The notes: a model not told the origin generated them from the letters alone. 64,000 nt of DNA from Candidatus Omnitrophota bacterium (GCA_016928875.1 JAFGJY010000089.1:3625-67624); one strand, 5' to 3'. Shown: positions 38,813-64,000, counted from the first letter of the stretch. Program-made: numbers and translations.

Positions 38813-39158
38813 TTTAGTTATTCGTAAATCGTAATTCGTAAAAAGTAATGCGTAAATCGTGGTTAGTATCTAGTGCCTCGTGTATCCTAATAATAAGCCA
38901 AATATCGGGACGTGCACTCCTTAAAATATATCTATTTTGAGGATAACGTCAAAACTTTAATCAGGGAAACATTTTTAGGATTTATATTTTGCGCACAGAT
39001 TAGTTGATGCGATAACTCTTTTATTTCAATTACGTTATGAACATACACCACGTTTTACGCCTTACGTTTTACGCATTACGCTTCACGCCTCACGTTTTAC
39101 GCATCGCGCCTCACAATTCACCAACCACAATCCACCAGCCACGATTCACCAACCACCT
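38813..39158. repeat. ORF-less inverted-repeat cassette: CGTAA-word arm (38813..38860), ~185-nt core, TTACG-word arm (39049..39113) plus CACCAACC-word block (39114..39158)
   Basis: The arms are mutually complementary word arrays. The 16-mer gtaattcgtaaaaagt (38831..38846) is identical to 39404..39419. The 22-mer gccttacgttttacgcattacg (39059..39080) is identical to 41863..41884. Confidence 0.75.
38925..38952 (-). promoter_or_regulatory. Candidate sigma70-type promoter inside the ORF-less cassette core
   Basis: The minus strand reads TTGACG (38952..38947) - 16 nt - TATATT (38930..38925), ~125 nt upstream of the epimerase ATG. The context is AT-rich, so a chance match is possible. Confidence 0.2.
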
Positions 39159-39382: not shown

Positions 39383-39425
39383 ATACCTCGTAAGTCGTAA
39401 AATGTAATTCGTAAAAAGTTAATTG

Positions 39426-39785
39426 TTAGCGTTTCAACGAAAATATCAAACCATTTAACATCTTTTTTATGTCTGTTATTTCTTGTTCAATCTTAAAGGC
39501 ATCTTTAACATAACCCTGTTTTTGTGCTATCACAATATGTGTATCTAATTCTGCAAGAGAACCGAGAGCCACATACAAGAACTGCGCAAACTCCTTTTTT
39601 GATTGCCTGCCTGCACCCTCGGCTATATTGGCCGGGATCGATACAGCAGCACGACGCATTTGACTAATCATCCCAAACTTTTCATCATCAGGAAAAGCTT
39701 TCACTAATACATAGATGTCGCTTACAAGTTCTATGCTTCTTTTCCATACATCGAGATCTTTATGACTTTTGTAAGTACTCATCAC
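39426..39785 (-). CDS. Four-helix-bundle protein (23S rRNA intervening-sequence protein family), copy 1
   Basis: ..KDLDVWKRSIELV..FPDDEKFGMISQMRRAAVSIPANIAEGAGRQSKKEF.QFL.VALGSLAELDT.. is the hallmark of this family. Start is GTG 39785 or ATG 39782. Confidence 0.9.
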   Translation of the reverse strand: MMSTYKSHKDLDVWKRSIELVSDIYVLVKAFPDDEKFGMISQMRRAAVSIPANIAEGAGRQSKKEFAQFLYVALGSLAELDTHIVIAQKQGYVKDAFKIEQEITDIKKMLNGLIFSLKR

Positions 39786-39802
39786 GCCTCACGTTTTACG
39801 CC

Positions 39803-41668
39803 TTACGTCTTACGAATTACCTCGATCCACGGCGTCTCAGTAATGCTACCTTTAACATCAGTACACTCGTACTCTACCGTCCCGTCATCCAGCTTCATCA
39901 CGACCTCAAACCCATGTTCATCAAAAAACGTCTTACACGGCATATTCTTCTTCGTCGGCACATACTCCGCCTTTATCTTATCTATGCCCCATGCACCATG
40001 CACTATGCACTTTTTCAGCACTCCCATCGCCGCCGCCTCTATCCCTCGCCCGAGCGCTCGGCAACTTATTATAAAACTATCTATTACCGCTTCTTTATTT
40101 TCAATTTTTACGAGGTATGTCCCAATAATGCCCAAATTCCCGAACTTATCTTCTGCTTCAACTACATGAAGAATACAATTATTATCTTTATAAAAAATCT
40201 CAATATCGCCAATATCGTAGCGTTTTGTAGTTACATTAAACTGATTGGTTTTAATAAATAACTGGTGAACACGCGCAAGCTGGTCTGTGTTGGGTTTATA
40301 GACCCGCACGGATGTACCTAGCGAATGCAAATACTCATTAATGTCAGTAATAGCACTTTTCTCCTCTTCCCGCTTCCGTTGCTGTTTGTATTGGATTGAC
40401 TTGGTCGCATCTTCGGCCGTGATAGTCAAACGTTCAAAGCACGGCAACGAATAAATAAGAGGTGCATATTCAACGGGGTCATCAGATAACTGTATGGTCA
40501 TGACATCAGGCTGCGCTTCCCTCATAAGCTCGCATTCCGCCGGATTGTCATCTATAAAGACAATACTATCGAGCCCAATATTAAGCTGCCCCGCGATCTT
40601 TGCTATATTCACCGCTTTAGGCTCCCAATCGACCATGATCGCGGAAAAATCATCCAATGAAAGGGGCATCTCTGATGCACGCAGTTTAAAAAGCTCTTCA
40701 ACATCCGCCATATTGTTCTTACTGCAAATCGCTAACAGTATCCCTCTCGCCTTAAGTGACTTTATTGCATATTGGAACGCCCTAAAGGCTTCAGCCTGCG
40801 GATTACCCTGTCCTATCAACACACCCTGCGGCCCATCTTCACCTACTATACCGTCCCACAATGTATTGTCCAGATCAACAACTAAACACTTCATTGCGCA
40901 TCCCTTGATCACTTGAATATATCGAGCAATATCAGCAGCCATAAACCGCATGAAATCATCCGACCATTCGATCTTGGATAAATAATAAAAGGTATCGTCA
41001 CATGCACGTTCACTGCCAAACCGATTAACGGCACCCGCAAGATCATAAATAACAACGCGTGGATCCTTCTTAAATGCCGTACTCAACATAGTGTTAAGGT
41101 GAGCGTAAAATGCACTTTCACCAGCCTCACTTTTTGTATCAGCGATCCCATACGCTTTACGTGCCGGCATTGCAAAATTTGCCACCATGATCATCGACTT
41201 TGTGCTCTTAGAAACCATTTGAACCCACTGTTTACATTCATCGATGATACGGGCAGCCTCAGCTTTATGTTCTGCCGATGATAAAGAGCTATACTGATAA
41301 TAAATATCCGGAGACAATTCTCGCAGTGATAATTGGAAGAAAATGACGCTAGGCTTAGCGGCATATAGGCCAGATTGCGGATTAAGCGCCTCCTGTTGGT
41401 ACTGTCCATAGGGGGCTACATATTCAGAGATCGATATCCCTCTGCACAGCGCTGATGCAATAACATTACGTGAAATTACATCAAGGGTAGTATTTCCCAC
41501 AAATGAAACTTTAATATCCGTTTTATCAGCCTCTTTATTCTTTTTATAAATCAAATCAATGTCCTTTGAGGAAAGGTCTTCAGAAGCAACAGACACAAGT
41601 ATCTTCTTCAACGCAGAAATCGACTCACTATTTTTTATCGACTCTCTTAATTGCTTATTATCACTCAT
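39803..41668 (-). CDS. FkbH-like HAD-IIIC phosphatase/acyl-loading protein with C-terminal GNAT-like domain
   Basis: CLVVDLDNTLWDG (HAD DxDxT) and IFIDDNP. 621 aa. The last codons VIRKT-stop are encoded by the TTACG-word arm. Confidence 0.8.
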   Translation of the reverse strand: MSDNKQLRESIKNSESISALKKILVSVASEDLSSKDIDLIYKKNKEADKTDIKVSFVGNTTLDVISRNVIASALCRGISISEYVAPYGQYQQEALNPQSGLYAAKPSVIFFQLSLRELSPDIYYQYSSLSSAEHKAEAARIIDECKQWVQMVSKSTKSMIMVANFAMPARKAYGIADTKSEAGESAFYAHLNTMLSTAFKKDPRVVIYDLAGAVNRFGSERACDDTFYYLSKIEWSDDFMRFMAADIARYIQVIKGCAMKCLVVDLDNTLWDGIVGEDGPQGVLIGQGNPQAEAFRAFQYAIKSLKARGILLAICSKNNMADVEELFKLRASEMPLSLDDFSAIMVDWEPKAVNIAKIAGQLNIGLDSIVFIDDNPAECELMREAQPDVMTIQLSDDPVEYAPLIYSLPCFERLTITAEDATKSIQYKQQRKREEEKSAITDINEYLHSLGTSVRVYKPNTDQLARVHQLFIKTNQFNVTTKRYDIGDIEIFYKDNNCILHVVEAEDKFGNLGIIGTYLVKIENKEAVIDSFIISCRALGRGIEAAAMGVLKKCIVHGAWGIDKIKAEYVPTKKNMPCKTFFDEHGFEVVMKLDDGTVEYECTDVKGSITETPWIEVIRKT

Positions 41669-41703: not shown

Positions 41704-41833
41704 GTCGCGTCCCGGCTTGTTTTATGTCATTCCCGACTTACTTCACGTCATTTCCGACTTGCTTCACATCATTCCCGACTTGCTTCATGTCATTCCCGAC
41801 TTGCTTCATGTCATTCCCGCGAACGCGGGAATC
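41704..41833. repeat. 21-bp half-palindrome stutter array (about 6 units) ending in a full palindrome
   Basis: Units start at 41704, 41726, 41747, 41768 and 41789 (gtcattcccgacttgcttcat and variants). The terminal unit is gtcattcccgcgaacgcgggaatc (41810..41833). Confidence 0.85.
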
Positions 41834-41862: not shown

Positions 41863-41949
41863 GCCTTACGTTTTACGCATTACGTCTTACTCCCCGCTAT
41901 CCACCAAGCACTAATCACCAACCACCAACCACTAACCACCATCCACCAA
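41863..41949. repeat. Second copy of the composite TTACG-word + CACCAACC-word block
   Basis: gccttacgttttacgcattacgtcttac, then atccaccaagcactaatcaccaaccaccaaccactaaccaccatccaccaat. It has the same order and orientation as 39049..39158. Confidence 0.8.
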
Positions 41950-56640: not shown

Positions 56641-57551
56641 ACCTCCCACCGCTTCATTTTTACTATCAATTTGTGGCCTGATAAAAAGAATATCAAATGA
56701 TCGAATTGCGCGAAGAGCCAAAATAACGGATATGTCAGTGAATACGCCATAAATAGTTTCTTGTATTTATTCATGTCATGTGAAGTCACGACGTTGCCTT
56801 TGGATGGTTCTGTGTTCTGGGTTGCACGCTCGGATAAGTTCTGAGTTCCGAGTTCTGAGTTCTGGGTAGCGACATTGGATGAGTTCGGGGTTCGGGGTTC
56901 GGGGTTCTGAGATGTACACTCTGAACTCTGAACTCTGAACTCAGAACCTTTTAACAATCCCATCCCAAAACAAATAATGATGTCTATCAATTCCGAAAAG
57001 AAACGTGAATAGGCCCGGGATGTGGCTACATCAAAGCTATCGAAGAGCTCTGCAAGCTCTTTTTTTGTATACCCGGGGCGTACATGCCCGTGCTTTTCGT
57101 CTGTTAACCCTAGCATATATTGTAAAGGCCGTATGAGTGACCACGATACTTTATGCGGCGCAAGTACTATTAATTCACCTTCCGGCTTCAATATGCGTTT
57201 AATTTCCAGCGCAAAAGCGTGATCGTCCTCTACGTGTTCTAGCATATCAACGATAACGATAACGTCAAAAGCATGATCAGCAAATGGCAGATGAGGCGGA
57301 TTGTCGATATGCACGACATTAGTTTTAACCAATGACTCGATCGAGTTAACCGTTTCCATACTGAGATCCGCACTCGTCCATTGACCACCTTGCTGTCGCA
57401 ATAAATAACTGATAACACCATTATCAGAACCCAGATCAAGACAGGCCTTGTTATCTAGGTTAGGTAGTAAACGATTAATCTGGTGCCATTTTTCTTTCTT
57501 GAGCACTGATTTTGAGAATAATTTTAAATGCCAATTATCCATTGCGTTCAC
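56637..57551 (-). CDS. Class I SAM-dependent methyltransferase (type 11) with an in-frame repeat insertion near the C-terminus
   Basis: CLDLGSDNGVISYLL (motif I), FDVIVIVDMLEHVEDD. The segment SEFRVQSSECTSQNPEPRTPNSSNVATQNSELGTQNLSERATQNTEP is encoded by the repeat at 56807..56948. Confidence 0.8.
   Translation of the reverse strand: MNAMDNWHLKLFSKSVLKKEKWHQINRLLPNLDNKACLDLGSDNGVISYLLRQQGGQWTSADLSMETVNSIESLVKTNVVHIDNPPHLPFADHAFDVIVIVDMLEHVEDDHAFALEIKRILKPEGELIVLAPHKVSWSLIRPLQYMLGLTDEKHGHVRPGYTKKELAELFDSFDVATSRAYSRFFSELIDIIICFGMGLLKGSEFRVQSSECTSQNPEPRTPNSSNVATQNSELGTQNLSERATQNTEPSKGNVVTSHDMNKYKKLFMAYSLTYPLFWLFAQFDHLIFFLSGHKLIVKMKRWEV
56807..56948. repeat. ORF-less GTTCTGAG-word palindromic element inside the methyltransferase CDS
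   Basis: The left arm gttctgagttccgagttctgagttctggg (56838..56866) matches the reverse complement of the right arm ctctgaactctgaactctgaactcagaacc (56919..56948) at about 25/29 positions. The centre holds a gttcggg x3 tandem (56883..56905). Confidence 0.8.
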
Positions 57552-58557
57552 TCGTCCCTACTAATTTACGTAATGCCCCATACCCCAAATACTGATCGGC
57601 CAAAAATGTTATTGCATATTGAAACGGAATCCCGCCGATCTGCTTACGGCACAGGCGGTCGCATTTCTTACAAAGTGAAAGCTCGTTAACGTTCCCTGCT
57701 AAATTACGCCGGAGCGTTGTATACGCCGCGCCGTTCCATATTTCTTTAATAGAACTCTTGCTGACGTTCCCGAGGTTCATACACGCCATAAAGTCCTGAG
57801 GACAAGGCGTTACGGTTCCATCCCAACATATGACCATTGCGTACCATGGGAACGTGCATACATTACCGTTCAGGATCTCGCCGCCTTTATTCGATTCAAC
57901 GGCCCAGTCATATTCCTGCTTAGTAATGATCTCATTTACCCCAAGGTCACGGAATTCCTGCTCAAGCGCGCGCGTCTCAGCCGTGTCAACGTTCATGCTC
58001 TCATCTTTAAAATGAATACGTTCGATAACAATGTACGGGAGTGCCTCCCTCAACTGTTTCTTGCGTTTGAGGAGTTCTTTTATGTTCGCCACCGTTGTCT
58101 CAAAATTCCCGCCGCGACGGACCTTTTCGTATACATCCTTGGTAAAACCGTCAAAAGAAATAGATACTAAATTCGGGGCGGCTTCGATAAGGAGTTCTGA
58201 CTTATCAAGCGAAAGCAACCCGGCATTGGTGTGAAAACGCACTGCAATCCCTCTATTCTTTGCATATATGATCATTTTAAAGAGGTCTTTGTTCGTAAGC
58301 GGTTCCCCGCGATGATGCAAATAGACATCATTCACAAAATCTTTAGCCTCATCAATGATCTTTTTAAAGAGTTCAAAACTCATCTTCCCTTTCTTCTCTG
58401 CGGCCAAATCTTTGTTTGGGCACATCACACATTTGAGGTTACAGATCAGGCTTGACTCGATCCACAGCTTGATGGGCATGGTATCGAGCGTGGTCTTACG
58501 GCGCTTAAAGTTCGCGAGTATTTTGGCGAGGGTGTAGGTCTTATGTATAAAGTTCAT
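57535..58557 (-). CDS. Radical SAM enzyme with SPASM/twitch-like C-terminal Cys cluster
   Basis: SSLICNLKCVMCP (CxxxCxxC). C-terminus CTFPWYAMVICWDGTVTPCPQDF..C...CKKCDRLC. Paralogue of 11690..12781. Confidence 0.8.
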   Translation of the reverse strand: MNFIHKTYTLAKILANFKRRKTTLDTMPIKLWIESSLICNLKCVMCPNKDLAAEKKGKMSFELFKKIIDEAKDFVNDVYLHHRGEPLTNKDLFKMIIYAKNRGIAVRFHTNAGLLSLDKSELLIEAAPNLVSISFDGFTKDVYEKVRRGGNFETTVANIKELLKRKKQLREALPYIVIERIHFKDESMNVDTAETRALEQEFRDLGVNEIITKQEYDWAVESNKGGEILNGNVCTFPWYAMVICWDGTVTPCPQDFMACMNLGNVSKSSIKEIWNGAAYTTLRRNLAGNVNELSLCKKCDRLCRKQIGGIPFQYAITFLADQYLGYGALRKLVGTSERNG

Positions 58558-58580
58558 AGTTCTGGGTTCTGGGTTCTGGG

Positions 58581-58943
58581 TTATTTTAATTTTTGTGAAA
58601 AAGTAAATATCATTCGTGATAATATGTCTAATTCTTCTAATAGAGCCTTTTGTTTATCATCAGTAATATATCCTTGGTTCGCGGAAATAAACACTTGCGT
58701 TTCAAGTTCTGCGATAGAGCCACGTGCTACTGCTAAAAATTGTTTAAATTCCTTCGCATGATTTCTTCTGAATCCCTCAGCAATATTTGATGGGACCGAA
58801 ACTGAAGCCCGTCTCATTTGAGATATCATCCCAAACTTCTCGTCTTCTGGATATTTTTTCGTGATCTCATATATAGCATTGACGATATCCATCCCTTTCT
58901 GCCATATTTTTAAATCTTTATAGTGCTTTATTCCTTCTGTCAT
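58581..58943 (-). CDS. Four-helix-bundle protein (23S rRNA IVS protein family), copy 2
   Basis: ..YKDLKIWQKGMDIV..YPEDEKFGMISQMRRASVSVPSNIAEGFRRNHAKEFKQFLAVARGSIAELET.. . Confidence 0.9.
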   Translation of the reverse strand: MTEGIKHYKDLKIWQKGMDIVNAIYEITKKYPEDEKFGMISQMRRASVSVPSNIAEGFRRNHAKEFKQFLAVARGSIAELETQVFISANQGYITDDKQKALLEELDILSRMIFTFSQKLK

Positions 58944-58966
58944 AGTTAATTATAACTTTCTACTAA

Positions 58967-59100
58967 GTCCTGGGTTCAGCGTTCTGTGTCCTGAGTTAAT
59001 TCAACTTCTTTGCGAATGTTAATATCAAATGCTTTTTTCTTCTCTTATTCTAATATCCTAGCGTTCAACCCAGAACCCAGAACGCTGTACTCTGAACTCA
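58967..59100. repeat. GTTCTGGG-word arms upstream of 4HB copy 2 (an inverted pair around an AT-rich ~65-nt loop)
   Basis: gtcctgggttcagcgttctgtgtcctgagtt (58967..58997) pairs with gttcaacccagaacccagaacgctgtactctgaactca (59063..59100). There is a perfect 10-mer pair at 58977..58986 / 59078..59087. A third arm, gttctgggttctgggttctgggtt, lies at 58559..58582. Confidence 0.8.
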
Positions 59101-60082: not shown

Positions 60083-60185
60083 TGTCATCCTGAGACGAGC
60101 GAAGCGAGGCGAAGGATCCAGGATAAGCATTCACGTGGTACTTGTAGCCTAGATCCTTCGCCCCTCCGGGGCTCAGGATGACAGC
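60083..60185. repeat. Hairpin MITE family A, copy 2 (intergenic, abutting the stop of 60187..61146)
   Basis: tgtcatcctgagacgagcgaagcgaggcgaaggatccaggataagc...cctagatccttcgcccctccggggctcaggatgacagc. The minus-strand frame AVILSPGGAKDLGYKYHVNAYPGSFASLRSSQDD is open. Confidence 0.85.
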
Positions 60186-60186
60186 A

Positions 60187-61146
60187 TTATTTAATTATTT
60201 CAGCTGTAACTGTACTTAATTTTTCCGCTTTGTATTTTCCTTGCCGTAAAATGATCACGCTTAATAACGCTAAAAAAATAAAATGCGTCACCAGCATGAG
60301 CATCAGCAATGTCGCTCCGGGAAAGACGATGCCCGGCGTATGCGCAAAGATATAATGTTCTATGGTCGCGATGAGACAGAGCACGCTTAATGCCAGGAAC
60401 GGTAATGTCCAGAACGCGAAGAATAATGCCGGCTTTGTTGAGAAACGAGTTAAAAGCACCATAGTAAATAGATCCGCAAACACCTTGAACGTCCGTGAAA
60501 GCCCGTATTTTGATTTCCCATACACCCTCGCATAATGGTTCACCGGCATCTCCGCGGTACGAGCACCGGTGATCGAAGCCACTGCCGGGAAAAAGCGATG
60601 CATCTCAGCGTATGCCTGCACTTCCCTGATACATTCCCGTTTGTATGCCTTGAGCGAACAACCGTAATCGTGCAAATGAACGCCGGTGAGGATCGATATG
60701 AGCTTATTGGCACACATTGAGGGTAACTTGCGCGTTAAGAATTTATCCTGGCGTTTGTACCGCCACCCGCTCACGACCTCATAGCCTTCGTCCATCTTAT
60801 CAAGCAACTTTTTCATATCAGCCGGATCGTTCTGCAGATCGCCGTCCATGGTAATAATGATATCGCCGCGTGCGTGATCGAAACCCGCGACCATGGCCGG
60901 CGTCTGGCCGTAATTCTTTCTGAAGCGGATAACGCGCAGGTCATTGGTGCCTGACACCAACTGTTTCAATATCTCAGGTGTCTTGTCACTCGAGCCATCA
61001 TCGATCAATATGATCTCATACGAACGCCCAAGCTTTACCGCTTCATCGTGGACACGCTCATAGAGCTTCTTAACGCATTCTTGTTCGTTGTAAATAGGAA
61101 TTACGATCGACAGATCAGGGTTCATGGTGCATAGTTCATGGTTCAT
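60187..61146 (-). CDS. GT2 polyprenol-phosphate glycosyltransferase (ArnC/GtrB-like)
   Basis: LSIVIPIYNEQE..ILIDDGSSDKT..ITMDGDLQNDP plus C-terminal TM helices. ATG 61146 forms ATGA with the 4HB stop. The first 7 codons (MNHELCT) lie in the repeat arm; an alternative start is ATG 61125 (MNPDLSIVIP). Confidence 0.85.
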   Translation of the reverse strand: MNHELCTMNPDLSIVIPIYNEQECVKKLYERVHDEAVKLGRSYEIILIDDGSSDKTPEILKQLVSGTNDLRVIRFRKNYGQTPAMVAGFDHARGDIIITMDGDLQNDPADMKKLLDKMDEGYEVVSGWRYKRQDKFLTRKLPSMCANKLISILTGVHLHDYGCSLKAYKRECIREVQAYAEMHRFFPAVASITGARTAEMPVNHYARVYGKSKYGLSRTFKVFADLFTMVLLTRFSTKPALFFAFWTLPFLALSVLCLIATIEHYIFAHTPGIVFPGATLLMLMLVTHFIFLALLSVIILRQGKYKAEKLSTVTAEIIK

Positions 61147-61508
61147 GGTACGATACTCTTCATTAATGCTGTAATTTTACGGCCTAATTGAGACAGCAAG
61201 CTCAATAATCGTTCTTTAATTTCATTATTTAAAAATCCCAAATTATATGAAAGCATTACTTGCGTTTCTAATTCAGCTAACGACCCTCGCGCGATACTCA
61301 AAAACTGCTTAAACTCTTTCTTGTGTGAACGTCGAAACCCTTCTGCAATATTCGAAGGAATTGAAACCGCAGCTCTTTTCATTTGTATAACAATTCCATA
61401 TTTTTCTTCATCGGGATAATTGCTACAGACCTCGTAGACAAATTTAGCCAAGACCATCCCCTCTTGCCACACGATCAAATCTTGATATGTCTGTATCTTT
61501 TTATTCAT
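61143..61508 (-). CDS. Four-helix-bundle protein (23S rRNA IVS protein family), copy 3
   Basis: MNKKIQTYQDLIVWQEGM..YPDEEKYGIVIQMKRAAVSIPSNIAEGFRRSHKKEFKQFLSIARGSLAELET.. . The start at 61508 was chosen by alignment with copies 1 and 2; the ORF-track GTG at 61535 lies in the repeat arm. Confidence 0.9.
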   Translation of the reverse strand: MNKKIQTYQDLIVWQEGMVLAKFVYEVCSNYPDEEKYGIVIQMKRAAVSIPSNIAEGFRRSHKKEFKQFLSIARGSLAELETQVMLSYNLGFLNNEIKERLLSLLSQLGRKITALMKSIVP

Positions 61509-61552
61509 ATTCTTTATTGCTTTACCATGCACCACGCACTATGCACCATGCA

Positions 61553-62386
61553 CTATACTTTCAGGGAATCCCCATACTCCGCGATGGTCATGAATTCATT
61601 GCCCGACATGATCGCACGCAATTTTGATTCTGTTTTATCAAGGTTTATATAATGTCGGAATGCTGCTAACGCGTTCGTCGTTATGCGCGGCTGTTCCGGA
61701 TCGAATTCCCACGGATGAAAGTACATATTCACAACCTGCTCTGCGGCATTGACCTGTTGCATACATTTTTTTATTACCCATAAAGGCAACATTCTAAAGT
61801 AACCGCCGCCGGCAAAGGGTATCCTCTTACCTAATACTTCTGCGGTTGATATTGGTATCTCCTGCAACTGCCCTTTTTGCGTTTTTATGACATACGGATA
61901 ACGCTCTTTACTCGGCAAGCCATAATGATCATGATGCATCGGGAACAATGATGAGTCGAACTCAATCCCAAGTTCTTTTATAACATCATATGCCCACATG
62001 GTCTTCCGTGATATTGAAAAGCATGGCGCTCGATAGGACCTTATCTTCTTCTGCGCCAAGGTGCCTAATATCTGCAGAGACCTTTCTACATCTTTCTTAT
62101 ATTCTTCTTGAGTTTGTTTGTATACGAGTTCATGCCCATAGCCATGAGAGGCGATCTCATGGCCACGTTCGGCAATGTGTCTTATCACATCAGGACGTTT
62201 TTCTGCCACACACCCAAGCACAAAAAAGGTCGCCTTGGCATTATGATCATCGAGGATACGCAATATTCTCATGAGGCCTACGGTAAGACGTGAGTCGAAG
62301 TTCTTCCACTCGTCCTGACGTATGACAGACTTGAAGTTCTCCACTTGGTAATATTCTTCGACGTCGAAGGTGAGTATGATCTTCAC
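61553..62386 (-). CDS. Polysaccharide deacetylase (NodB-type; resembles the DUF3473/PEP-CTERM-locus subfamily)
   Basis: VKIILTFDVEEYYQVENF.., ..IASHGYGHE.., C-terminal ..YFHPWEFDPEQP. GTG 62386 is preceded by AAGGAG at 6-nt spacing. The ORF-track ATG 62440 lies in a repeat (IRYTIY words). Confidence 0.8.
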   Translation of the reverse strand: MKIILTFDVEEYYQVENFKSVIRQDEWKNFDSRLTVGLMRILRILDDHNAKATFFVLGCVAEKRPDVIRHIAERGHEIASHGYGHELVYKQTQEEYKKDVERSLQILGTLAQKKIRSYRAPCFSISRKTMWAYDVIKELGIEFDSSLFPMHHDHYGLPSKERYPYVIKTQKGQLQEIPISTAEVLGKRIPFAGGGYFRMLPLWVIKKCMQQVNAAEQVVNMYFHPWEFDPEQPRITTNALAAFRHYINLDKTESKLRAIMSGNEFMTIAEYGDSLKV

Positions 62387-62444
62387 TTGGTGCTCCTTGT
62401 ATATCGTATAGCGTATTGCGTCGTGCGTATTGCGTTGCACCCCT

Positions 62445-62555
62445 CGTCATCATTACGAAAGAGTGCAGGGCCCTTGCTTCCGTCGTCATTGCGAAAGAGT
62501 GCAGGGCCCTTACTTCCGTCGTCATTGCGAGTGAACACAGCGCTCTTACTCTTCA
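62445..62555. repeat. 36-bp half-element stutter array (about 3 units) leading into MITE A copy 3
   Basis: Units cgtcatcattacgaaagagtgcagggcccttgcttc (62445..62480), cgtcgtcattgcgaaagagtgcagggcccttacttc (62481..62516), and a degenerate third unit. Confidence 0.8.
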
Positions 62556-62664
62556 TGTCATCCTGAGACGAGCGCAGCGAGGCGAAGGATCCAGGATATT
62601 TGTTCACTAGGTTCGCATAACCTGGGTCCTTCGTCACGCCTTTGGCGTGACTCAGGATGACAGC
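62556..62664. repeat. Hairpin MITE family A, copy 3 (intergenic)
   Basis: tgtcatcctgagacgagcgcagcgaggcgaaggatccaggatatttg...cctgggtccttcgtcacgcctttggcgtgactcaggatgacagc. The frame VILSHAKGVTKDPGYANLVNKYPGSFASLRSSQDD is open. Confidence 0.85.
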
Positions 62665-62687: not shown

Positions 62688-62789
62688 TCATGTCCTCGGG
62701 CTCCAGGTAACCAGTTTTTTGCCTCTAAGCCACTCAACCCCGGCGACCATGGAGGCGTAGTTGACGAGGCAAAGATAATAACATAAACG
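62688..62789 (-). pseudogene. Detached second copy of the last 33 codons + stop of the GT2 gene at 62932..64000
   Basis: It encodes RLCYYLCLVNYASMVAGVEWLRGKKLVTWSPRT-stop, against RLCYYLCLVNYASMVAGIQWLRGKKLVTWNPRT-stop at 62932..63033. That is 3 aa changes despite many nucleotide (mostly synonymous) differences. No upstream coding continuation exists. Confidence 0.75.
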
Positions 62790-62801
62790 TACAATCTTCC
62801 T

Positions 62802-62931: not shown

Positions 62932-64000
62932 TTATGTTCTCGGATTCCACGTAACTAATTTCTTCCCCCTCAGCCACTGGATGCCGGCGACCATAGAGGC
63001 GTAGTTGACAAGGCACAAATAGTAACAGAGACGGATAACTGAGTATATCGTATTTCGTATATCGTATTTCGTCGCACCATTGTCGTCATTGCGTCTCTTG
63101 CTGTCATCCTGAGGAGTTTCGCCTTCAGGCGGAACGACGAAGGATCCAGGATATTCGTTCACTTGATTCAAGTAACCTGGGTCCTTCGCCCCTTCGGGGC
63201 TCAGGATGACAGCGGCTGCGCCGGAACGAACATATCCATACACCGCCAATGCATAAAATACCAACTGCAGCGTAAACAGCACGTGATACAACGTACCGGC
63301 CGGGATGAGAAAATAATTGGTTATAAAGACGACGAGCTGCATCCAGCCTATATCATAACGGAATCCCTTGTGTGAGATGATCTGCCAGCTTACAAGGCCA
63401 TTATTAAAAACGTTAAACGATAAGTCCTTAAATTTCATGAGCGCATGAATGCTGCGGAGCGCCACGCGCACACGCATCGAAAATTCTTCTTCATGGGTCT
63501 CATTTGCATCTTCAACGATCACCGCTTCGGGCTCATAGACAACGCGGTAATTTTTCTGCATAACTGTTAAAGGCAATACGAAATCCGGTAGGTCTTCAGC
63601 GTCCATATCTTCATAAAGCTCTAGACGACAGGCGTCTATACCGCCGTCAACGCCGATCACAGAGCCGACCTTGGTCTCGAGTTTGCGCAATGTGTTCTCA
63701 TAGGCCATGTAGGCGCCGCAGCCTTCACTGACACCGCTGTCTGTCTTTGTCTGATAGACCATTTTACCCGTTACGTAGCCGACGGTCGGGTCTGCGAAAT
63801 TACGGATAAGGGCTTTTATAGCTCCTGGTTTATATATAGAATTAGCATCGCTGAAGATAAGAATAACATCACCGTTATCACCTATTGTCGTCCCCGCGGA
63901 AGCGGGGATCTCGGTACTTAGGTCCCGGCTCTGCGGCCGGGATGACATGGCTAGGTCCCCGCTTTCGCGGGGACGACATGAATCGGTGCCGGGACGACCT
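62932..64000 (-). CDS. GT2 glycosyltransferase with C-terminal TM helices, partial (N-terminus beyond window end), carrying two in-frame repeat insertions
   Basis: ..DVILIFSDANSIYKPGAIKALIRNFADPTVGYVTG.. (GT-A D-x-D/DAN region), ..EDLPDF.., and C-terminal TM segments. The frame stays open upstream of ATG 63948 to position 64000, so the true start lies outside the window. Confidence 0.7.
   Translation of the reverse strand, partial: GRPGTDSCRPRESGDLAMSSRPQSRDLSTEIPASAGTTIGDNGDVILIFSDANSIYKPGAIKALIRNFADPTVGYVTGKMVYQTKTDSGVSEGCGAYMAYENTLRKLETKVGSVIGVDGGIDACRLELYEDMDAEDLPDFVLPLTVMQKNYRVVYEPEAVIVEDANETHEEEFSMRVRVALRSIHALMKFKDLSFNVFNNGLVSWQIISHKGFRYDIGWMQLVVFITNYFLIPAGTLYHVLFTLQLVFYALAVYGYVRSGAAAVILSPEGAKDPGYLNQVNEYPGSFVVPPEGETPQDDSKRRNDDNGATKYDIRNTIYSVIRLCYYLCLVNYASMVAGIQWLRGKKLVTWNPRT
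63102..63213. repeat. Hairpin MITE family A, copy 4 (inside the GT2 CDS, in frame)
   Basis: tgtcatcctgaggagtttcgccttcaggcggaacgacgaaggatccaggatattcg...cctgggtccttcgccccttcggggctcaggatgacagc. Translated as AVILSPEGAKDPGYLNQVNEYPGSFVVPPEGETPQDDS. Confidence 0.85.
63886..63980. repeat. Family B palindromic element, copy 2 (inside the GT2 CDS, in frame)
   Basis: Same as 62844..62905 but with an extra internal palindrome, gtcccggctctgcggccgggat. Translated as ..RESGDLAMSSRPQSRDLSTEIPASAGTT.. . Confidence 0.8.

Follow-up and report, generated by a model that had tools for sequence, protein, structure and literature searches.

How can a gene of some 120 codons settle between two cistrons of an operon at a junction where stop and start codons practically touch, and how is the gene downstream of it then translated? 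This question is raised by a polysaccharide locus of Candidatus Omnitrophica, contained in a 64,000-nucleotide stretch of DNA (GCA_016928875.1 JAFGJY010000089.1:3625-67624) which is called the window below and whose positions are counted from its first letter. The minus strand carries all genes of this part of the window, among them those for an XrtA-system polysaccharide deacetylase and a family-2 glycosyltransferase (GT2). Between these two lies a small gene for a four-helix-bundle (4HB) protein, flanked on both sides by arrays of short tandem words that are inverted relative to each other. This unit, cassette 3 (61120-61553, 434 nt), is a 4HB insertion of the type known as intervening sequences (IVSs) of 23S rRNA, one of three such insertions that the window contains, and belongs to a widespread class. 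The reading that we favor, with a probability of roughly 60%, is that cassette 3 is a copy of a widespread element inserted co-oriented at a stop/start junction, that its stem would be a substrate of RNase III, and that GT2 would be translated either through reinitiation or from a stem that has been cut or melted.

In the order of the mRNA, the deacetylase gene is followed by a 31-nt arm, a 14-nt spacer, the 121-codon 4HB gene, a second 31-nt arm and GT2. The deacetylase (61553-62386, minus strand) has 277 amino acids from GTG 62386, and NCBI calls the same 277-aa protein; it matches TIGR03006 with 331 bits against a cutoff of 276. The G of its stop codon TAG (61555-61553) is at the same time base 1 of the 5′ arm (61523-61553, minus strand), which reads GUGCAUG GUGCAUA GUGCGUG GUGCAUG GUA in mRNA sense. 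The 4HB gene (61143-61508, minus strand) starts at ATG 61508 and encodes 121 amino acids, identical with the 121-aa protein called by NCBI. Its product matches PF05635 from profile position 1 to 105 of 106 (E 5.9e-37, 126.6 bits against a cutoff of 33.8) and TIGR02436 with 118 bits against a cutoff of 24, and aligns with PDB 2GSC at E 3.6e-26; judged by these matches it is a full-length member of PF05635 / TIGR02436, above the curated cutoffs. The 3′ arm (61120-61150, minus strand; UAC CAUGAAC CAUGAAC UAUGCAC CAUGAAC in mRNA sense) starts within the last codons of the 4HB gene and holds the 4HB stop together with four AUGs. GT2 (60187-61146, minus strand), whose product, like those of the other two genes, is identical to an NCBI entry from a Candidatus Omnitrophica MAG, has two candidate starts there: a distal ATG (61144-61146), which overlaps the 4HB stop as ATGA (61146-61143), opens MNHELCT-MNPDLS and is the start annotated by NCBI, and a proximal ATG (61123-61125) in the outermost arm word, which opens MNPDLSIVIP and is probably the ancestral start of the host gene.

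An inverted-repeat search returned the two arms as 61120-61150 / 61523-61553, 31 nt long, 87% complementary and separated by 372 nt. They form 27 Watson-Crick pairs out of 31, or 28 if one G-U pair on the minus (transcribed) strand is counted, and each arm consists of four tandem 7-nt words (Tandem Repeats Finder, period 7). The original prediction, made for this cassette from the window alone, had its coordinates right throughout, while its arms of about 23/28 matches turn out to be slightly longer and better paired. The exact inverted 13-mer that it reported is there, CATGGTGCATAG being unique to 61123 and its reverse complement unique to 61539; so are the ATG overlapping the 4HB stop (plus-strand tcat at 61143-61146, hence ATGA on the minus strand), the second in-frame ATG at 61125-61123 and the arm at the deacetylase TAG, whose last base was found to be shared. 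Direct reading of the words also reveals a compensated double change, GTGCATA facing TATGCAC where the consensus has GTGCATG facing CATGCAC. The four AUGs of the 3′ arm are 7 nt apart, the first and the fourth being in the frame of GT2; the second and the third open five-codon ORFs (open reading frames), MNYAP and MHHEP.

Does such a repeat stand out from a window in which tandem heptamer arrays are frequent? All 31-mer inverted pairs of the 64-kb window whose arms lie 300-520 nt apart were scored. At least 24 of 31 positions were complementary at only four places, namely cassette 3 (27), cassette 2 (27), cassette 1 (24) and an array beside cassette 1 (25); all of them lie at the three 4HB genes of the window, and the tail of the background stops near 23. 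The inverted repeat of cassette 3 is a real, non-random feature. Cassette 2 (58551-59098, minus strand) carries its 4HB gene at 58581-58943 between arms at 59067-59098 and 58551-58582, built of the words AGTTCAG/GGTTCTG; its 5′ arm adjoins the stop of the upstream GT2, and the ATG (58557) of the downstream radical-SAM gene lies within its 3′ arm. In cassette 1 (39390-39820, minus strand; 4HB gene 39426-39785, arms 39791-39820 and 39390-39419, words GTAANNC), the 5′ arm contains the final five codons and the stop of an upstream FkbH-like gene. The 4HB ORFs of all three cassettes are intact and full-length, with strong matches to the family models. The words differ from one to another (GTGCATG, AGTTCAG/GGTTCTG, GTAANNC), and what the cassettes of this window conserve is complementarity rather than the sequence of the arms.

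If cassette 3 was inserted, what did the junction look like before? In one relative whose GT2 is 64% identical (L004), there is no cassette, and the deacetylase stop overlaps the GT2 start as ATGA in ...GAGGTGTGTTCATGAATTC, so that the GT2 ortholog begins with Met-Asn (ATGAAT). In L086/L087, with deacetylases 66% identical, no cassette is present either, and the deacetylase overlaps the next glycosyltransferase gene as ATGA. The closest relative, L001 (GT2 85% identical), has no 4HB gene; its junction is occupied by an 82-nt palindromic element, and the two ORFs are fused in frame. L002/L003 (68% identical, syntenic) have at the junction an internally deleted 4HB cassette with different arm words, and an intact 4HB cassette one gene beyond this remnant. 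Since relatives have either cassette-free ATGA overlaps or varied occupants, cassette 3 is one of several insertions; as far as these junctions can tell, it is an insertion into a naturally very tight stop/start junction that has been invaded repeatedly. The tight wedging asserted in the original prediction is thereby borne out by the ATGA overlaps of L004 and L086/L087, and the tight fit is not peculiar to cassette 3 but general for this cassette class. A putative empty site, AAAGTAT followed directly by GAACCCTGAT, would give back LKV-stop and MNPD with an ATGA overlap; the L001 junction minus its element reads ACAAAATAGAGAACCC, which does not settle this reconstruction. The palindromic element of L001 spans 241-322 (cgtcattgcgagg...cctcgcaatgacg), and repeats related to it ('gtcatcctgag...', 'cgtcattgcga...') are found in the window at 60090-60186, at 62445-62660 and inside ORF 62932-63948. 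A further state of the junction is seen in L088 (1180-1400), a natural in-frame fusion of deacetylase and GT2 of 425 amino acids with neither stop nor start at the junction.

Do the arms belong to the cassette, or are they made anew from each target? The remnant and the intact cassette of L002 are paralogs which sit at different sites and share their arm words. The two are homologous from just outside the 5′ arm to just beyond the 3′ arm; about 260 nt are deleted in between, after which the final third of the ORF and the 3′ arm are still shared. In addition, among 80 loci from GTDB genomes, those that share an arm word type have 4HB proteins which are 64-84% identical, compared with about 49% otherwise, in five of six word types and across different phyla. 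For example, identity within the AAGGCACA type is 68% and to others 50%; the values are 64% and 48% for CGTATTG, and 71% and 52% for TTAGCTTT. Because the L002 paralogs keep their words and word type tracks the similarity of the 4HB proteins, the arms belong to the cassette, and these comparisons show arms and ORF to be co-inherited as a discrete unit. Construction of the arms from the target site at each insertion was rejected in view of the two L002 cassettes with the same words at different sites, and also of word types that follow the lineage of the 4HB protein. Two copies on a Calothrix plasmid sit within a larger duplicated block and are uninformative on the ends of the cassette and on a target-site duplication.

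How general is this architecture? Eighty 4HB loci were collected from GTDB genomes with search patterns seeded from three sequences, and they come from Omnitrophota, Planctomycetota, Bacteroidota, Patescibacteria, Verrucomicrobiota, Acidobacteriota, Spirochaetota, Cyanobacteriota and others; among 8000 scored PF05635 candidates, 5244 reached E <= 1e-20. In 53 of the 80 loci, the flanking inverted repeat scores more than 2 above any shuffle of the flanks at that locus. A score of at least 13 was found in 51/77 4HB loci and in only 2/287 intervals of the same size moved by 800 or 1300 nt within the same loci, a control which keeps local composition. The median is 30 nt for the length of an arm and 475 nt for the span; the words repeat with a period of 7 in 22 loci and of 8 in 15, another 15 having no clear period. 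Neighboring genes are co-oriented with the 4HB gene upstream (43/47 loci) as well as downstream (41/45), the upstream stop being usually no more than about 15 nt away from the 5′ arm, and the downstream start often 0-30 nt beyond the 3′ arm. An exception to co-orientation is L091 (Nostoc edaphicum pNe_5, 1195-1563), where the 4HB gene is antisense between nrdA and nrdB. The 5′ arms are purine-rich, and of 52 consensus words 23 contain AGT, against about 6 that our own arithmetic predicts for random words. A cultured example is a plasmid of Calothrix brevissima, on which GGGTGTA arms begin 2 nt after an integrase stop and reach the start of the next ORF. Thus, hairpin-armed 4HB cassettes are a widespread class in many bacterial phyla. 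In the literature that we searched, 4HB cassettes flanked by inverted heptamer arms are nowhere described outside rRNA, which is not proof that no such description exists. In another polysaccharide locus, L086 (1625-2110), a small ORF of PDDEXK_3 (PF13366) lies between inverted ACGAATAAA-type arms, a second cargo family in the same architecture.

What would such a cassette do to the transcript of its host? In both the minimum-free-energy and the centroid fold of a 476-nt minus-strand RNA, the arms of cassette 3 are closed, and the arm duplex amounts to -41.9 kcal/mol. According to the partition function, in-register arm pairs form with a probability of 0.85 on average, and the probability of being unpaired is about 0 for both GT2 AUGs and 0.7-0.8 for the 4HB AUG; cassette 2 is predicted to fold as cassette 3 does. 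The arms are thus predicted to pair, and the sequestration of both GT2 starts by the stem that the original prediction had proposed is reproduced in the predicted folds. A scan of 58-63 kb for promoters and terminators found none above the shuffled expectation, and a cassette with no such signal of its own is probably co-transcribed with its neighbors.

We therefore consider the following course of events, which takes as its model the ORF-bearing IVS in the 23S rRNA of Coxiella burnetii, since cassette 3 matches it in anatomy. An element in which a 4HB (S23p / PF05635) gene of about 120 codons is enclosed by two arrays of short tandem words, inverted to each other, would have inserted in operon orientation at the former stop/start junction of the XrtA deacetylase and GT2, and the cassette would be transcribed together with the operon. 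In the transcript, the arms would close a 31-bp stem and loop out the 4HB cistron; this stem is predicted to leave the 4HB start open and to bury both in-frame GT2 starts. By analogy with the Coxiella IVS, RNase III may cut the stem, by which the host transcript would tolerate the insertion. GT2 could then be translated by termination-reinitiation from the 4HB cistron at AUGA (AUG 61146), or alternatively from AUG 61125 after the stem has been cut or melted. Coupling to the upstream ribosome was considered as the main mechanism and rejected: when the deacetylase stop and the next 13 nt were forced to be single-stranded, AUG 61125 was still paired (0.03-0.06 unpaired). The same test on cassette 2 resulted in a modest gain only.

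Several points weigh against this course of events. Taken as a whole, the fold of the cassette has a modest z-score (-1.64), so that support comes from the arm duplex and not from the overall fold. In the forced-single-strand test, AUG 61125 remains buried, as the tandem words find new partners in a shifted register. Mismatches in the arms of the 77 loci comprise 76 G-U and 102 A-C on the sense strand (p = 0.06), that is, no excess of G-U, and selection for pairing of the sense RNA is accordingly not demonstrated. A mid-stem cut by RNase III would leave GT2 a very short leader that has no Shine-Dalgarno sequence. As the closest homolog of the 4HB protein is only 59% identical, recent mobility of this copy is not established, and a target-site duplication could not be defined from the homologs found. 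The authors of the Coxiella study saw no evidence of S23p production in vivo (PMC4990558). For this uncultured host we infer, rather than observe, co-transcription, cleavage by RNase III, the route of translation and any activity of the protein.

Which of the two start codons belongs to the cassette? The original prediction held that the arms supply the start of GT2, and in this version the cassette brought CATG words that are now the sole start codons of the gene. One part of this stands: the distal ATG 61146 consists of arm words, as does the MNHELCT extension. The other part does not fare as well, in that the proximal ATG 61125 is more likely an ancestral host start that was absorbed into the arm, as comparison with the relatives suggests. 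In L001, homology to the window restarts at AACCCTGATCT, so that codon 2 of GT2 (AAC) is host sequence, common to L001 and the window, although no ATG precedes it there; the L004 ortholog also begins with Met-Asn, at its ATGA overlap. Similarly, the ATGAAC within the arm of cassette 2 is common to the L002 ortholog, whose start lies 30 nt outside L002's own arm. In cassette 2, the start within the arm plainly comes from the host gene. The words themselves tell a similar story. Of the four words in the 3′ arm three read CATGAAC; the 5′ arm, in turn, complements CATGCAC, and all three G-A mismatches fall at one and the same word position, where the 3′ arm has the host-type A. In the simplest reading, the outermost word of the 3′ arm would combine arm and host sequence, and this chimera would then have spread inward by slippage. 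Moreover, GTGCATG, whose complement puts CATG into the 3′ arm, is absent among the other 51 tabulated consensus arm words. What speaks for a supply of both starts by the cassette is that the inverted repeat contains both in-frame ATGs and that L001, the closest relative, has GAG instead of ATG at the homologous position, directly before AACCCTGAT; and no relative has the array of CATG words at its GT2 start. We hold the cassette as sole source of the start codons to be rather doubtful, and a close relative of more than 90% nucleotide identity in which the empty junction ran ...GTATGAACCCTGAT or similarly, ATG included, would contradict it. The start in use may be Met 61146 or Met 61125. For annotation, starts and stops called beside such cassettes, like MNHELCT and MNPDLS here, are not to be trusted without data.

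Another explanation concerns DNA rather than RNA. The arms might act as a DNA hairpin or cruciform for a recombinase or transposase supplied in trans, comparable to attC sites, to REP/RAYT (repetitive extragenic palindromes and their associated transposases) or to the ends of the insertion sequences IS200/IS605, and any effect on GT2 would be incidental. Since neither the G-U count nor the mimicry of an upstream ribosome helps the RNA role, this is a live rival. The cassette behaves like a unit able to duplicate and to be transferred, its arms are asymmetric between strands in composition and enriched in AGT, and arrays of words also occur with no cargo, as at 56810-56955. The mismatches also lean slightly to antisense G-T (102 versus 76), a bias that does not reach significance (p = 0.06). 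On the other hand, no recombinase has been identified with the cassettes, and the same architecture in 23S rRNA is processed as RNA (PMC4990558). Co-orientation with the operon is required for a role in RNA and not for a DNA hairpin, even though it would also serve expression of the ORF. Taken together, we consider a DNA role unlikely, if worth keeping in mind.

Or, the cassette may be nothing but a decaying relic, with a stem that old terminal repeats have left behind and a GT2 that is expressed despite it. Remnant cassettes do exist, as in L002, no close copy of the 4HB gene of cassette 3 is known (the best being 59% identical), and S23p was argued to be dispensable by the Coxiella authors (PMC4990558). 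Decay is hard to reconcile with three ORFs in the window that are all intact and full-length with strong family matches, with arms that are complementary in 51/77 loci despite complete turnover of the words, and with the compensated change within cassette 3, so that a relic appears improbable. That two low-complexity tandem arrays gave rise to the inverted repeat by chance is an idea which the frequency of heptamer arrays in the window might invite; it is refuted by the four places of at least 24/31, all at the three 4HB genes, and by the 2/287 shifted controls that reach 13, and it deserves practically no credence.

Word arrays of the window are not limited to its cassettes. At 56810-56955 (minus strand), an intergenic block consists of heptamer arrays only (AGTTCAG x4, CCCGAAC x3 and a TCAGAAC type), folding as a hairpin with no gene within; word-repeat arms thus exist without cargo, too. 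More heptamer arrays lie at 38820-38860, 39050-39157 and 41865-41949 (TCGTAAA/ACGTTTT, CACCAAC/TGGTGGT), and the pair 39050-39080 / 39389-39419, 25/31 complementary, brackets an acyl-carrier-protein gene (PF00550). The arm word of cassette 3 recurs as an ATGCACC x3.9 array at 39984-40010, within the coding sequence of the FkbH-like ORF 39803-41668 and about 21 kb away from cassette 3. In the glycosyltransferase ORF 62932-63948, the last 35 codons or so are duplicated downstream of an inserted repeat block (62700-62800 versus 62935-63035). Heptamer arrays of the AATACG type at 63043-63072 and 62399-62437 are direct, not inverted, and tandem units of 21 nt and 36 nt are found at 41710-41819, 2592-2647 and 62445-62550, for example TCCCGACTTGCTTCACGTCAT x5.

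Why does such an element matter? PF05635, a very large family, is named for its rare location in 23S rRNA, and there is no accepted function for the protein or for the intervening sequences of rRNA. In the loci collected here, the 4HB gene normally travels with covarying hairpin arms, co-oriented between an operon stop and a start, and has the structural hallmarks of the rRNA element. A curiosity of naming thus becomes a defined element, which predicts RNase III ends within the arms, dependence of the downstream gene on pairing, and coupling at AUGA. A bolder possibility, which we put forward only tentatively, is that 4HB (S23p) word-arm cassettes form one transferable intercistronic class, that the IVSs of rRNA are copies which landed in rRNA, that the arms make insertion tolerable, and that heptamer arrays are such arms or their footprints. 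If so, the device for tolerance would be excision by RNase III or a looping-out that preserves translational coupling, and the short tandemly repeated repetitive (STRR) sequences of cyanobacteria, the GGGAATC pairs of Xanthomonas and the cargo-free arrays of this window would be arms or footprints of cassettes. This would offer a candidate explanation for inverted heptamer arrays, which have been called functionless or unexplained since 1990.

How, then, does cassette 3 compare with known systems? It is not an integron gene cassette, as its repeats flank the ORF, with 372 nt between them, instead of forming a single attC, and the cassettes are scattered singly among housekeeping genes of operons (intI was not searched for). 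Nor is it a miniature inverted-repeat transposable element or a REP-type repeat, having an intact ORF, three copies with different arm words, a closest homolog of 59% and no definable target-site duplication. The 4HB protein shares its fold superfamily with Avd of diversity-generating retroelements and matches NF033474 and PF22296 weakly, at 26.7 bits against a cutoff of 80 and 26.8 against 40, respectively, which sets it apart from Avd. The neighbors adjoining cassette 3, deacetylase and GT2, include no reverse transcriptase and no template or variable repeats; the rest of the window was not searched for reverse transcriptase. In phage MS2, the 'Min Jou' interaction between coat and replicase regions gates a downstream start by long-distance RNA pairing, and translational coupling at ATGA is likewise established. 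Cassette 3 resembles both in that the GT2 start would be buried by a distant upstream segment and AUGA links 4HB to GT2, a likeness in function only; unlike in Min Jou gating, freeing 13 nt after the deacetylase stop in silico left AUG 61125 paired.

Heptamer arrays of the STRR type were reportedly described in cyanobacteria by Mazel et al. in 1990. Tandem heptamers in intergenic spacers are also documented as GGGAATC in Xanthomonas and GGGGA(C/T)T in Nostoc; Xanthomonas has 70-75 convergent (inverted) pairs with the potential to form stem-loops, and copy number varies between strains (PMC4692102). G-quadruplexes were proposed for these arrays with no functional explanation, and 'S23' or 4HB genes are nowhere mentioned in that paper (PMC4692102). 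The arrays of 4HB loci differ in that they bracket a gene and that their words vary from locus to locus.

The closest match remains the ORF-bearing IVS of 23S rRNA, known from Coxiella and also from Leptospira and Brucella. The rRNA elements reside in helix 9, 25 or 45, while cassette 3 lies between two protein-coding cistrons and not in helix 45; an Rfam scan gave no match anywhere in the 64-kb window, and at 17 related loci with no clear upstream ORF it gave tRNAs only, so none of these is an rRNA IVS. Unlike in rRNA, the arms of cassette 3 overlap a stop and start codons and therefore touch translation. The Coxiella IVS, 428-444 nt long with a terminal stem of 28 bp, encodes S23p, has three or four tandem GACAGAT heptamers in its 5′ stem region, the number varying with the strain, and is cut mid-stem by RNase III (PMC4990558). 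Such processing is demonstrated for the rRNA elements and would be expected of cassette 3. In the following respects the two run in parallel: a protein of the S23p / PF05635 family, its ORF in the loop of a terminal inverted-repeat stem, the size and the stem (434 nt and 31 bp in cassette 3), tandem heptamers within that stem (GTGCATG x4 in place of GACAGAT x3-4), and the same orientation as the host transcript.

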